64,000 nucleotides of DNA from assembly GCA_951406725.2 (NCBI GenBank), contig OX597819.1, positions 101,184,001 to 101,248,000 on the forward strand, read 5' to 3'. The stretch comes from Octopus vulgaris. Lineage: Eukaryota. The notes beneath the pieces were generated by a model. That model was given only the letters and a program-made list of their open reading frames with translations, was not told the DNA's origin and made no database searches. The position numbers and the translations under genes are program-made. Below are positions 6,411-63,090 of the stretch, piece by piece; the first letter of the stretch is position 1, and the number at the start of each line of letters is the position of its first letter.

Positions 6411-6807
6411 GGCGCAGGAGTGGCTGTGTGGTAAGTAGCTTGCTAACCAGCCACATGGTTCCGGGTTCAGTTCCACTGCGTGGCATCTTGGGCAAGTGTC
6501 TTCTGCTATAGCCCTGGGCCGACCAATGCCTTATGAGTGGATTTGGTAGACGGAAACTGAAAGACGCCTGTCGTATATATGTATATATATGTATGTATGT
6601 ATGTGTGTATGTATGCGTGTCTGTGTTTGTCCCCCTAGCATTGCTTGACAACCGATGCTGGTGTGTTTACGTCCCCGTCACTTAGCGGTTCGGCAAAAGA
6701 GACCTTACAAAGAATAAGTCCCGGGGTCGATTTGCTCGACTAAAGGCGGTGCTCCAGCATGGCCGCAGTCAAAATGACTGAAACAAGTAAAAGAGTAAAA
6801 AGAGTAA

Positions 6808-6808
<1 letters not shown>
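6411..6808 (+). mobile_element. tRNA-derived SINE family A (octopus OK/OR-type, assignment unverified) with internal microsatellite
   Basis: A box tggctgtgtggt, B box ggttcagttcc, internal (TA/TG)n, 3' stem-loop agtca-aaa-tgact and aaagagta-type tail; multiple copies in window. Confidence 0.88.
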
Positions 6809-6855
<47 letters not shown>

Positions 6856-8127: not shown

Positions 8128-8401
8128 TAGTAGTAGTGGTAGTAGTTCATTTAATTTTAATTATTTGTATATATATTATTCAATTTGTCTTGTAAATATT
8201 GCTGTGACGGAAATACACGTTTCAAATTCGCAGTTATGAGTTGTTCAGTACAAATAGTCGATAGATAATCGAATGTATGCGGTTCAATGATGTATACAAA
8301 GGGACTACTTTCTCTCTCGCACTCTTCACTCACTCGCTCCCTTGGACTTTGGGGCAGTCCATCGTGTGTATATGTCTGTGAATGGATGTATGCGTCTGTA
8401 T

Positions 8402-8826
8402 ACTCTCTTTTAATCTTTTACTTGTTTCAGTCATTTGATTGTGACCATACTGGAACAACTCCTTTAGTCAATCGAGCAAATCGAGCTCGAGACTTATTCT
8501 TTGTAAGCCTAGTACTTATTCTATCGGTTGCTTTTACCGAAGTTACGGGGATGTAAACACACCAGCATCGGTTATCAAGCGATGTTGGGGGACAAAACAG
8601 ACACACAAACACACACACACGCACACACACACATATATACATACATCCATCCATACATACATATATACGACGGGCTTCTTTCAGCTTCCGTCTACCAAAT
8701 CCACTCACTAGGCTTTGGTCAACTCGAGGCTATAGAAGAAGACACTTGCCCAAGGTGTCATGCAGTGGGACTGAACCTGGAACCATGTGGTTCTTAAGCA
8801 AGCTACTTACCACACAGCCACTCCTA
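8402..8826 (-). mobile_element. SINE family A, full length
   Basis: Reverse complement of 6411-6808 including head (ttaccacacagccactcct), internal (CA)n and tail. Confidence 0.88.
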
Positions 8827-9010
8827 CGTATGTCATTATTCAGTTTTATTTCAAGATTTCTTGCCAATAGATCCGGTTTCTAAGCTAGCTCCAAGGTTCT
8901 TTCAGTGGAATTTCAACATTAACAACAGGGCATCTATGTATATGTGCAAATTTATATACTTTCTTTTATGCATGTCTCTTCATCCGTATACTTCAATAAC
9001 TACACATGGT

Positions 9011-20556: not shown

Positions 20557-20802
20557 GTTACTGTGCGGTAAGAAACTTGCTTCATCAAACACATGGTACC
20601 GATTTCAAACCCACTGCGTGGTAACTTGGCGCATCAAAGCCTTGTGAGAGGATTTGGTAGACGGAAACTTTAAGAAACCCGTAACTTAGTGTTTCGGTAA
20701 AATTTTATCGATAGAATAATAGGCTGACAAAGGATAAGTCCTGTGGGTCTAATTGTTCGACTAAAGGTGGGGCTCCATCATGACTGCAGTCAAAGACTGA
20801 AA
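20557..20802 (+). mobile_element. SINE family A with internal deletions
   Basis: Head ctgtgcggtaag, ggatttggtagacggaaact, and tail ctaaaggtggggctcca..cagtcaaagactgaaa. Confidence 0.75.
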
Positions 20803-27539: not shown

Positions 27540-27885
27540 ACATCATTGATCTTGATTATTCAGACCACCTTAAAACATTACAATTTTATTCACCCCACGT
27601 CGACCGTGAACAGTGCATCATCTGCACAATGCGAATCATATGCTATGAGCATTGCTCAAATGACTTTAACATCAGATTCAGAATTTATCCAAGGATGGAA
27701 ACCCGGGTTATAGTCCTCTTAAACATTTCAGTTCACATCACAGAACCGCATTGCATTACAATTACGTTTCCGCCACAGACTTTGCTCTGTTTAACGTTAT
27801 TTCGAAACAGATCAAAGAAGAAATATATCCCACCACCTTCAAACGATATCTGGATAAATTTCTTTCAGGGATACCACACAAGAAA
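27540..27885 (+). pseudogene. Old relic of the CR1-like LINE C-terminus
   Basis: LDYSDHLKTLQFYS..DREQCIICTM..EHCSNDFNIRFRIYPR and ALFNVISKQIKEE..FKRYLDKFLSGIP align to the C-terminus of ORF 48625-51282; one frameshift. Confidence 0.8.
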
Positions 27886-47622: not shown

Positions 47623-48339
47623 TGTGTGTGTGTGTGTGTGTGTGTATGTGTGTGTGTGTGCGCGTGTGTGTTTCTGTGTGAGAGAGAGAGAGAGAGAATA
47701 ATGATAGTGCACTGCTGAAGTGGTCAATTTTCTTAGCTGTAGTTGAACGGCGTAGGTTCTTGTTGCCACTTGACTTTAACTGCGTCATGGTGAATGGTCA
47801 AGTACTAAATGAAGCTACTATATATATATCCAAGGTCTATCAACAACAAGGCGCCAAAGACTAAATCGTTAATGACATTTTCGTTTGTTATTTACCAAAT
47901 CATTTTTACAAAAATTCGAATTCTAATGACTCAAGCATTTACTGGTTTTATTATATTTTTCTTGGTCAACATGCTACAAATATAAACAAGTTATTAATGT
48001 TCCAATCAGTGAACTGAATTGTTTGTCGCTACATGACATCATCAATCCTCAGCTGAACACTTATCTTTAATTTCACATTTTAACACAATGATGTCGGTTT
48101 CAATTCATTGGTAGTATGTCGCTGTTTGTGACATTTCTTCATTTTGGCAGCTGTAGTGTATGTTATTACAAACAGTTAGAATAACTCAATAAAGGCCGCA
48201 CAAGAGAGGTGGTTAGCAGAATAAAATGACGATCGGAGTAAATGCCATATGATATTGAAAAGTGCTCAATTTATGAGCATACATACACATGCAAACACAC
48301 ATCTACCTATGTATGTATGTATGTATGTATGTATCTATG

Positions 48340-48407
<68 letters not shown>

Positions 48408-48484
48408 ATATCAATACAGTTATATGTGTATTATATGTGTGTATACAGAAACATTTATACACACACACACGCACACACACATAA

Positions 48485-48535
<51 letters not shown>

Positions 48536-48539
<4 letters not shown>

Positions 48540-51371
48540 ATACTTTGATACTTTGATAGGTTTCGGCCATTATTGGCCCAGGCCATGTCTAACTTAATAG
48601 CACCACCTGGTGAAGTCTTTCAAGTCAGAATTTGGGCACTATGGCCCACTCAAGTAGAGAGTTATTGTTTACAGAGACATATCCGGGAGTAGGGGGTTTA
48701 TCCGGGATTTCTTGAAGGAATCTGTCCAAAGACTTCTTGAACCCTATAGGGTCAGTTTCTGTTTTAATGTGTTTTGGTGTAATGTTAAAGAGAGCGGGGC
48801 CAATTGAGGTGAAATAATTGTGCCGTATTGTTGTTATGAGATGAGAGTGCGATTTTTGTTTTGGGTGGATGGCACGGGGCCCAAGCCTTGGATGTACCTT
48901 AAAGGTGATGCCAACATCATTTGGGCAATGCTGATGGAATATTTTCCACATCATGCAGATGATGTAGCGCTCACGACGACGTTGGAGAGAATAAAGTTTT
49001 AGCTTTTCTAGTCGACCCCAATAGTCGAGGCCTGTCATGTCATCTATCTTTTTTGTGATTGCCCTTTGAGGTGCTTCAACTTTTATGATACCTTCTATTG
49101 TGTGGGGAGACCACAGTGGACAACAGTATTCAAGGTGGGGTCGGGCAAAAGTGGAGAAGAGAAGGATAATGGTGTGGATATCTCTCGACTGGAAAGTTCT
49201 GAGAATCCAGGAACACATTCTGCGGGCCATGTCAACTTTGGTGTTTATATGAGTGGTCCAGCTTATGTTGTTGTCCACAATTACTCCCAAGTCTCTGATG
49301 TTGTTGGACGCCGCGAGAGTTTCACCTGAAGGAAGGGAGTATGGGAGTTTCAGGGCATCCTCTTTTCCAAAGTGGATTAACTCAAATTTATCCTCGTTCA
49401 GCAGCATATTGTTTTTTTCTGCCCATTGGATAACATCCAGTAGATCTGACTGAAGGCATGTCCGGTCACTCGCCTCATTTATGACCTTCTGTAGCTTGGA
49501 ATCATCTGCAAAAATTTTTATGTTGCTGTGCTTGATGATGTCATTAATGTCATTAATGTAAATGATGAAAAGAAGTGGGCCCAGCAGAGTGCCTTGCGGA
49601 ACGCCACTACTGACTTTGGCTGGGCTTGATTTTACCCCTTCAACTACAACATGCTGAGATCTGTCTGTCAGGAAACACTTGATCCATTTCAGTAACTTTC
49701 CAGAGACACCAATGTTGGATAGTTTTTTCAATAGGATCTTGTGATCGACCCTGTCGAAGGCCGTACTGAAATCAAGGTAGATGACATCGGTGTTGGAGCC
49801 CTCTCCCAAAGCTCTCAAAATGTCATCAAAGTGATACAGGAGCTGCGTTAGGCAGTCCCTTCCATTACGGAACCCATGTTGGTTGGAGATCAGTCGTCTG
49901 TTGCTTTCCAGAAATTGGGTTATTCGAGATCTCACCACCCTCTCAAATACCTTGATGATATGAGAGGTGAGTGAGATCGGACGGTAGTTCACTGCAAGGG
50001 ACTTGTTTCCCTTTTTGAAAACTGGGACAACAGACTGGGACAGAAGGTTTTTTGGAATATAGCCAGCATCCAGTGAGTTTCTCCACAGATTAGCAAGGGG
50101 AGATGCAAGTTGGTATCGACACACCTTCAGGACACAAGCAGGGAACCTATCGGGGCCTACTGCTGAATTGTGTTTTATTTCGTTTATCGCCGCTAAGACA
50201 TCAGGGGCACTAAACATTATGTCCGATATAGTGTGTTGGGGGTTGACATCACTGATATAGCCCAGATCGGCCATATCAGGATTGCTGAAAACAGAGCAAT
50301 ATTGTTTCTGCAGTATCTCGGCCATGGATTTGGCATTATCTTGGAGAGTGCCAGTTTCATCAATTAGAGGGCCAACAATGGAGACAGTGACCCTGCGTTT
50401 CCTCGCAAATGAAAAGAACACTTTGGGGTTGAGTTTGATTTTTTCAAAGGCCCACTTCTCCTCAGCTGATCTTTGGTTATTGATGAGGGTCTTCATGCAT
50501 TGTTGGAAGTTATATTTTTTTGATTCAAGCAGTGCGATAGCCGTCGAATGTGTGTGTTGCTGTTGGCAGTACTTTAGTTTGTTAATTTTTTTGTTTGTTC
50601 TTTTTATTTTTCTGATAATGGTTTTTCTGTTTTGGGGGATTCTGCACTTTTTGTTCACAGGTCTTGGTGGGGAGTGTTTTGCACATATGTCTGTGACGGT
50701 GTCTACAAAGATCTGCCAAGATGTTTTATGGTTGGTGGAGATGTGTGTATGTGTAAAGGACCAGTCAACATGTGATAGCTCGTTTCTGATTGCATCCCAG
50801 TTGGCATTATGGAGATCCATGTTGTCAAATGGGTGGGCTGGAGGGAGGTCACTAGGATTAGCTTTCGGCTGGTGGAATTTCATGTTACAGAGAACCATGT
50901 CATGGTCTGAAAGAAGGGTTTTTTCCACTGTAACGTTATGTATAGTGTTAGTGTGGTTACTAAAGACTAGGTCCAAGATGTTCTGATGTCTTGTTGGTGC
51001 AAGGACAAGTTGGGACAAGAAAAACTTATTCGTAAAGTCGAAAAGTGACTCTGCTGCTTCTTTGTCAGCGGTTGAGGCGGGAGTGCTTGGTTTCAAACAG
51101 TTTGTAGTCCAGTCAACACAGGGTAGATTGAAGTCTCCCATCATGAGTAGGTTGCTAGAATGGCACTGTTGAATAAAGCACTTAATGCTGTTGAGGCATT
51201 CTTTAAAGCACAGTATGGGTGTTTGGGGCGGCCTATAGAGCCCAATTACTGTCAGGTCATTGGCTTTGTTGTGCACGGTCACTGATTCACAGTAGCCGTT
51301 GGAGAATATACTATTTCCATCTGCCGTAAACGAATCATGCAGGAAAATGGCAGTTCCACCCTTCCTCCTGC

Positions 51372-51373
<2 letters not shown>
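48536..51373 (-). mobile_element. CR1-clade LINE, 5'-truncated, inserted in (TA)n
   Basis: APE+RT ORF; ~90-nt 3'UTR with stem-loop ggcca-ataa-tggcc and 8-mer tail (GTATCAAA) about x3; (TA)n on both sides. Confidence 0.9.
48625..51372 (-). CDS. LINE ORF2 (partial APE endonuclease + reverse transcriptase); frame open up to the truncation point, no native start codon
   Basis: EN motifs RRKGGTAIF, GLYRPP, MGDFN, PTR..NILDLVF, SDH; RT motifs NYRPISLT, QHGFR, YLDFSTAFDRVDH, GVPQGTLLGPLLF, FADD, RDLGV; frame extends 30 codons upstream of the track start at 51282. Confidence 0.93.
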
Positions 51374-51427
<54 letters not shown>

Positions 51428-51453
51428 TATAATCATACATACTTACAAAAATA

Positions 51454-62298: not shown

Positions 62299-62597
62299 GT
62301 GTGGTAAGTAGCTTGCTAACCAACCACATGGTTCCGGGTTCAGTCCCACTGAGTGGCATCTTGGGCAAGTGTCTTCTGCTATAACCCCGGGCCGACCAAT
62401 GCCTTGTGAGTGGTTTTGTTAGACGGAAACTAAAAGAAGCCTGTCGTATATATGTATATATATATATGTATGTGTGTCTGTATTTGTCCCCCTAGCATTG
62501 CTTGACAACCGATGCTGGTGTGTTTACGTCGATTTGCTCGACTATAGGCTGTGCTCCAGCATGGCCGCAATTAAATGACTGAAACAAGTAAAAGAGT
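62299..62597 (+). mobile_element. SINE family A with internal deletion
   Basis: Near-identical to 6427-6795; deletion joins tttacgtc to gatttgctcgac. Confidence 0.88.
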
Positions 62598-63090
62598 TAA
62601 TGAGTATATATATATAAACATATATACATATACACTTATGCATATACACATATATATAAACATATGTATACAAGCATCTACATATATGTATGTTTGTGTA
62701 TCTGTGTGTGGTGTGTGTGTTTATTTGTGTGTGTGTGTCCATGCGTGCTTGCCTGCGTATGTATGTGTTTCCAGGCTTCACATTTATTTGCCCATTCCTC
62801 ACCATTACTCTACTACTCACCATTTCTACCTTGAACTAGTCGCCTATCACGTGGGCGTTCCCGCATCAAGTTCTGTATCAGTACATCAGATGGCAACTGG
62901 CATGGTATGACATTAACGGGTTCTCTGCCTAAACTGAAGAATGTTACATCTATTTCTTCTTTGTTTCCTATCTCTCTGGTACAGAAATGCCAGATTCTTT
63001 AGTTGGTATTGGCAGATGGATGAGTGAAAGGACCTGATATATGTGGCATGTAATAAAATGTTTCTGCGTCAGTGTATATCTGTGAGTATA

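Follow-up and report, generated by a model that had tools for sequence, protein, structure and literature searches.

General features of the locus

The DNA analysed here (the window) is a stretch of 64,000 nucleotides from Octopus vulgaris, which contains a 5′-truncated LINE and copies of a SINE, termed SINE-A, with related 3′ tails (Table 1). The letters A to F used below for LINE families are labels coined in this analysis, the window LINE belonging to family A1.

Table 1. Features of the LINE and of the SINE-A copies in the window
Feature	Position	Strand	Remarks
SINE-A element	6411-6809	+	tRNA-like head, CORE-like stretch, internal microsatellite, tail
SINE-A tRNA-like head	6411-6480	+	A-box-like 6421-6431, B-box-like 6464-6474, by eye
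SINE-A CORE-like central stretch	6486-6540 (end approximate)	+	this copy differs by one change from the CORE motif of PMC5786205
SINE-A internal microsatellite	6573-6615	+	present in other copies too
SINE-A tail hairpin 1	6745-6764	+	4-nt loop, B/E type
SINE-A tail hairpin 2	6766-6780	+
SINE-A conserved 5-nt motif and 8-nt terminal repeats	6780-6809	+	same as in LINE family B
Further SINE-A copy with tail	8401-8828	-
Decayed SINE-A copy with tail	20561-20802	+
Further SINE-A copy with tail	62299-62600	+
5′-truncated LINE, family A1	48536-51373	-	(AT)n tracts on both flanks
ORF2 of young 5′-truncated CR1-group LINE A1	48625-51373	-	endonuclease remnant and reverse transcriptase; open frame, P0001 residues 20-935
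LINE conserved 5-nt motif and three 8-nt terminal repeats, then (AT)n tract	48536-48564	-
LINE tail hairpin 2	48565-48578	-	5-bp stem of the sequence-only reading; sequence, covariation, fold prediction
LINE tail hairpin 1	48579-48609	-	long-loop A type with G.G mismatch; fold prediction, coordinates read off the sequence

The first 19 residues of the frame P0001 correspond to the (AT)n tract at 51374-51431. A domain scan of this protein identified RVT_1 and Exo_endo_phos only, with RNase H absent, and the close relatives listed for P0002 show the same domains in precomputed annotation. The CR1-group combination of an AP endonuclease and a reverse transcriptase (RT) without RNase H is therefore present, as scanned in P0001 and by way of listed relatives for P0002, as are the short 3′ tandem repeats that stand in place of poly(A). 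The RT is 34-35% identical to two stork RT proteins, which served as tree outgroup and as the only clade reference compared, and which we take to be CR1. Family A1 is young: the 30 best genome matches to its 3′ end are 85-100% identical, and its median divergence is 0.6% (n = 31 copies, a sample biased to close matches). Residue 557 of P0001 (window 49760-49770 region) is a private change in a conserved RT motif, lysine being found in 16 of 18 close matches. The window also has an old fragment of a CR1-group ORF2 C-terminus (27579-27712) with 74% DNA identity to the window LINE.

SINE-A is likely a tRNA-headed, CORE-like SINE, judging from its sequence. The head is defined by box-like stretches seen by eye; ARAGORN identified no tRNA in the 64-kb window, and Rfam gave no tRNA match for SINE locus L031. 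Of 157 SINE-A heads, at least 53 have the 7-letter CORE motif named in the passages covered of PMC5786205 behind the B box, and a further 34 have a one-base variant, the comparison being of the motif only. Just upstream of the LINE-derived tail, a perfect 5-bp hairpin was noticed by eye at 6726-6740; an origin of this hairpin from a LINE was rejected, as LINE homology is absent there.

Copy number of SINE-A and related SINEs

Exact SINE-A tails number 85,610 in the genome, with none for the reversed-pattern control. A blind 400 kb sample contained 27 young and 18 old tails, which, if the sample holds, gives approximately 190,000 young and 125,000 old copies. The proposal of an earlier, sequence-only reading of the window that this is the most abundant SINE was borne out over one other tRNA-headed SINE (53 SINE-A-type heads against 13 in the blind 400 kb), the ranking being limited to these two.

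A second tRNA-headed SINE occurs as chimeras (L199:8980-9200, L192:6450-6660, L095:6830-7060), two copies having the SINE-A tail and one the tail of LINE family C, an arrangement whose sequence suggests template switching. There is also a Tx1-tailed SINE (L326, L280, L446, L055 and others) in which the body stretch just before the tail seems, by eye, to be common with SINE-A; a single SINE body may here have exchanged the tail of one LINE clade for that of another. At locus L140, a full SINE-A copy is lodged inside the 3′ end of a LINE-C copy.

Structure of the shared tail

The sequence-only reading had quoted the 3′ ends of the LINE (minus strand, 48612-48536) and of the SINE (6744-6809) correctly, and its observation that SINE-A carries a CR1-group LINE tail with covarying structure stands. 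The three blocks it described as conserved in order are indeed present, the first two now being recognised as the two strands of an additional hairpin that lies upstream and contains an invariant G.G mismatch. Folding predicts two adjacent hairpins in both the LINE and the SINE tail (z -2.9 and -3.3). In the 5-bp stem of hairpin 2, compensatory changes at pairs 1 and 3 (G-C to A-U and C-G to U-A) were verified and are above chance. The stem with its loop, as first drawn, holds for the window copy of SINE-A, in which the loop is one base longer than the family norm (four such copies compared with 32 shorter among 87 motif matches). With the shorter loop that is the norm, closure of the innermost pair is impossible, and the five pairs of the stem lie one position further out.

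Over ten tails, 92.3% of 130 cells are paired, compared with 8-40% in slid controls. Two-sided changes occur in six of 13 pairs of these tails, including all five of hairpin 2, with hairpin 1 being mostly invariant and showing almost none. The ten rows are related and hand-picked, and so they support the fold without providing a probability. SINE-A and family B differ by one two-sided change in hairpin 2, and this pair thus has a stem-loop with a compensatory change. The A1 tail departs further from SINE-A, its first loop being of 6 rather than 4 nt with a bulge, and its hairpin 2 lacking the outer pair. A hammerhead-like reading of hairpin 2 and the 5-nt motif was dropped, there being no Rfam ribozyme match; Rfam searches with four loci returned only microsatellite-driven matches below the gathering score, with the tail unmatched.

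LINE families sharing the tail

A degenerate tail pattern gave 6,966 matches in the genome and none with the reversed-pattern control. Upstream checks identified families A1-A3, B, C, D, E and F, each with its tail behind an ORF2. An entire lineage of CR1-group LINEs has this tail, represented by six or more families of the genome and by one relative from a metagenome. The latter, contig L346, possesses the C-terminus of the lineage, a hairpin 1 that retains the G.G mismatch, and a repeat of similar type, and is the only locus with both the C-terminus and the tail among the best 22 of 80 metagenome loci as ranked by C-terminus.

In two trees, family A lies on a separate deep branch and B-F form one clade with support of 100. 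It should be mentioned that four rows of the second tree are partly non-element flank and that in the protein tree the decayed E and F rows carry frameshift noise, making their placements rough. In the protein tree, the B-F clade takes in an Argonauta hians protein, and seven further database proteins are nearer to B than A is. The closest named relative of the family B ORF2 is likewise from Argonauta hians (63%), while identity between the A and B ORF2 proteins is 43%. B and E are not firmly sisters, with support of 49 in one tree and no sister grouping in the protein tree.

Family B has 471 exact-pattern tails in the genome compared with one in the control, and its tails lie directly behind an ORF2. 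Intact B ORF2s of 1090 (L278) and 1066 (L276) residues, stop-to-stop, were identified, and L095 has an intact ORF2 of family C. A partial frame with cysteine/histidine clusters, possibly an ORF1 remnant, lies upstream of the B ORF2 at L278:3420-3900 and also in L276. Dense clusters of young B and C elements, with nested and head-to-head LINEs, occur at G000:C1:71.4-71.9 Mb and C2:55-60 Mb, and two loci, L119 and L251, have fold-back copies, with an inverted duplicate of the tail behind the tail itself. No LINE-B RNA was found among the sequencing runs listed, and a PDB search found structures only for L1, R2 and group II intron RTs.

Comparison of the SINE-A tail with the LINE families

With a typical SINE-A copy, family B matches at 51 of 57 positions, ungapped, followed by the older family E (47-49/57), C (43-44/58-60) and D (38-42/57-58). 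The three A types have the lowest scores of the nine LINE tail types compared, these being A1 at 40/66 with gaps, A3 at 38/67 and A2 at 35/67. When family majorities are divided into core (39 positions) and end (18 positions), the values are 33 + 18 for B, 30 + 6 for C and 29 + 9 for D; unselected E copies give 32/39 + 15/18 (n = 30), a core value of 34/39 for E coming from eight copies mostly picked by a pattern that selects for the SINE stem. Local scores against SINE-A are 88 for B, 82 for E and 30 for A1. The 15 Tx1-type tails tested score at most 22 and belong to another SINE, and Tx1 was rejected as SINE-A partner on account of this different tail.

The terminal repeat type is common to SINE-A, B and, with one base off, E, and is absent from A, C and D. 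The end of SINE-A, checked in 143 sampled copies, is the same as that of B (18/18), and in both elements the homologous tail stands at the very 3′ end, in B past the ORF2 stop region. Homology begins at hairpin 1, the 70 nt upstream being no better than shuffles for A1, B and E. SINE-A and families B-F have almost the same hairpin 1. B and SINE-A differ at one of four bases in loop 1 and two of four in loop 2. No LINE with the exact SINE-A tail was found among sets of 26, 37 or 30 matches, nor among 30 tested of a further 83, these searches requiring a conserved upstream motif that a family with another C-terminus would escape.

Ages and insertion sites

Family B copies have a median divergence of 0% from their own majority (n = 24), and the B burst is younger than most SINE-A copies. 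As young SINE-A copies diverge by 5.3% (31 blind copies, only two of them at or below 1.5%) and family E by 11.7% (n = 30 copies), the main SINE burst probably depended on an ancestor or sister of present-day B. Old SINE-A copies stand at 21% (n = 24), and SINE-A activity as a whole spans 0-25% divergence, longer than any single LINE family.

Young CR1-group families sit in (AT)n microsatellites, including those of the window (48308-48536 and 51374-51431) and of loci L001-L030 and L148-L177; a single literature search listed no report of CR1 elements in such microsatellites. A long (AT)n tract follows the tail in most copies of A1 (35/37), B (20/25), C (48/63) and E (18/30), but in only 4 of 31 blind and 5 of the 20 youngest SINE-A copies, against a background of 7.5% (Fisher p 4e-7 and 3e-4). 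SINE-A 3′ ends do adjoin short AT motifs (4/15 blind, 19/85 overall, background 3%), for which B and SINE-A are both above background.

This mismatch between LINE and SINE has three conceivable causes: long insertions may be selected against at other sites, targeting may depend on the cargo, or a partner may have gone unseen. A tentative and rather unlikely form of the second is that the lineage seeks (AT)n and its passenger SINE escapes this targeting, the same ORF2 protein serving both and target choice being set by cargo or ORF1p rather than by the endonuclease alone. If true, the LINE would deliver its own RNA into long microsatellites and spread the SINE RNA widely.

Candidate partner of SINE-A

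The data are best explained by a SINE-A tail taken from the B/E branch, with SINE-A likely copied by an ORF2 protein of that branch and not by the window family, a reading to which we assign a probability of about 0.7. The tail would consist of two adjacent predicted hairpins, followed by an invariant 5-nt motif and then short repeats. If the zebrafish L2 elements are taken as a model, the ORF2 protein of the B/E branch would have a general affinity for the stems and obtain its specificity from the loops, with contact to the stems perhaps made through the region between endonuclease and RT, as proposed from L2 work (PMC4176376). A nick in AT-rich DNA would then allow reverse transcription to be primed on the terminal repeats. 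Tail folding in vivo, binding and mobilisation are inferred, the sequences, family split, covariation, copy numbers and ages being observed directly. Under the L2 model, A1 is improbable as a partner, having a different loop and repeat, and the B/E branch is probable; the three loop differences between B and SINE-A leave some doubt on B itself, as loops set specificity in L2.

A less likely, though conceivable, explanation is loose recognition within the lineage, B, C, D, E, F and perhaps A having copied SINE-A at different times through shared stems, without any single partner. The near identity of hairpin 1 in B-F and SINE-A, the span of SINE-A activity beyond that of any one family and the chimeric SINEs with either a C tail or a SINE-A tail are consistent with this. 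However, the families retain distinct loops and terminal repeats, the SINE-A end is purely of the B/E type, and ZfL2-1 and ZfL2-2 show no cross-recognition in the passages covered of PMC4176376.

It is improbable that the CR1-group tail is an ancient relic and that SINE-A is today copied by Tx1, RTE, Nimb or an unseen family with looser target choice. The (AT)n contrast (20/25 B, 4/31 SINE-A) would fit such a history, and bivalve Nimb-type SINE tails share some ten letters with SINE-A by eye. Against it, Tx1-type tails, the ones compared individually among these other clades, score at most 22 compared with 88 for B and are those of another SINE, and both hairpins with the full terminal repeat of B are kept in the 85,610 exact tails (the end being checked in 143 copies).

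That the window family itself, or a close relative, mobilises SINE-A was the proposal of the sequence-only reading, and is now very improbable. The shared blocks and compensatory pairs are above chance, and A1 is both young (median 0.6%) and common, making up about one third of the first 100 of the 6,966 tail-pattern matches as counted by eye. Nevertheless, the A types score lowest of the nine tail types, with a 6-nt bulged first loop, a hairpin 2 without its outer pair and another terminal repeat; family A forms a separate deep branch, its ORF2 is only 43% identical to that of B, and 35 of 37 A1 copies lie in (AT)n. The better tail match in another LINE, which that reading had said would count against it, was found at the family level in B (51/57 ungapped). 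The window LINE has the same fold because all families of the lineage inherited it, and in sequence terms the compensatory pairs record this lineage-wide fold and not a specific partnership. A chance likeness, for which the short and gapped A1-SINE match might speak, has a negligible probability, as the global score of 45 exceeds the maximum of 30 in 1000 shuffles, the local score of 30 (14.0 +/- 3.3 in random windows) is reached by only 14 of 19,320 windows, the reversed-pattern controls gave 0 and B matches at 51/57.

Comparison with known systems

The class of mollusc CORE-SINE/CR1 partnerships is already known, and it is the octopus SINE-A pair that was not found in print. The passages covered describe CORE-SINEs and V-SINEs of bivalves that have a CR1 or CR1-Zenon tail with compensatory changes (PMC4824008, PMC4758252, PMC11481361), examples being BivaCORE-SINE1 and BivaV-SINE2, paired with CR1-14_CGi (PMC4824008), and Amar_SINE-2_CORE, paired with a CR1 (PMC11481361). 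These are mollusc tRNA SINEs with a conserved central domain, as SINE-A probably is, and like it they have a CR1-group tail and a stem-loop with compensatory changes; the 35-61 nt of tail homology given in those passages is counted as a further likeness. They differ in tail sequence (by eye), and the partner lists seen name no cephalopod; the SINE-A system differs also in its two hairpins and at least six coexisting donor-type families. Three SINE-A tail motifs had no match in the eight supplements searched.

UnaL2/UnaSINE and ZfL2-1/ZfL2-2 resemble SINE-A and B in having a 3′ stem-loop and short tandem repeats replacing poly(A), according to passages of PMC4176376 and PMC3747384. In contrast, these pairs belong to the L2 clade, have a single stem-loop and were shown by assay, whereas SINE-A/B is known from sequence. 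For ZfL2-1/2, the passages covered report that stems can be swapped and loops cannot (PMC4176376). Tail recognition has been dissected for L2, and no such assay for a CR1-group element was found in the portions of the literature covered.

In the passages covered of PMC4824008 and PMC4758252, which cite Ohshima and Okada (1994), the octopus elements OR1 and OR2 are classed as CORE-SINEs and no partner is given for them. They are described there as tRNA-derived CORE-SINEs of octopus, which SINE-A probably is too, and by this description SINE-A may well be one of the two. The parts covered of the PMC3747384 review contain no occurrence of OR1, OR2, mollusc or squid. For Octopus vulgaris, PMC13282606 describes CR1 families that are active and an expansion of SINEs and LINEs at a distance of 0.065, the word 'partner' being absent from the text covered. 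No octopus SINE/LINE pair was found in the portions covered of PMC3747384, PMC13282606, PMC9115989, PMC10294476, PMC5786205, PMC3531059 and PMC5804259, a search to which Repbase, Dfam and SINEBase did not belong.

Implications

The partner of a SINE cannot be named from a covarying tail that it has in common with the nearest LINE. The B/E branch provides a likely engine for a SINE whose exact tails number 85,610 or more, and the intact young ORF2 copies allow it to be tested without reconstruction. Should the passenger SINE indeed escape the (AT)n targeting of the lineage, at least five coexisting families with common stems and differing loops and repeats would provide a natural panel for the tail specificity code of CR1-group elements.
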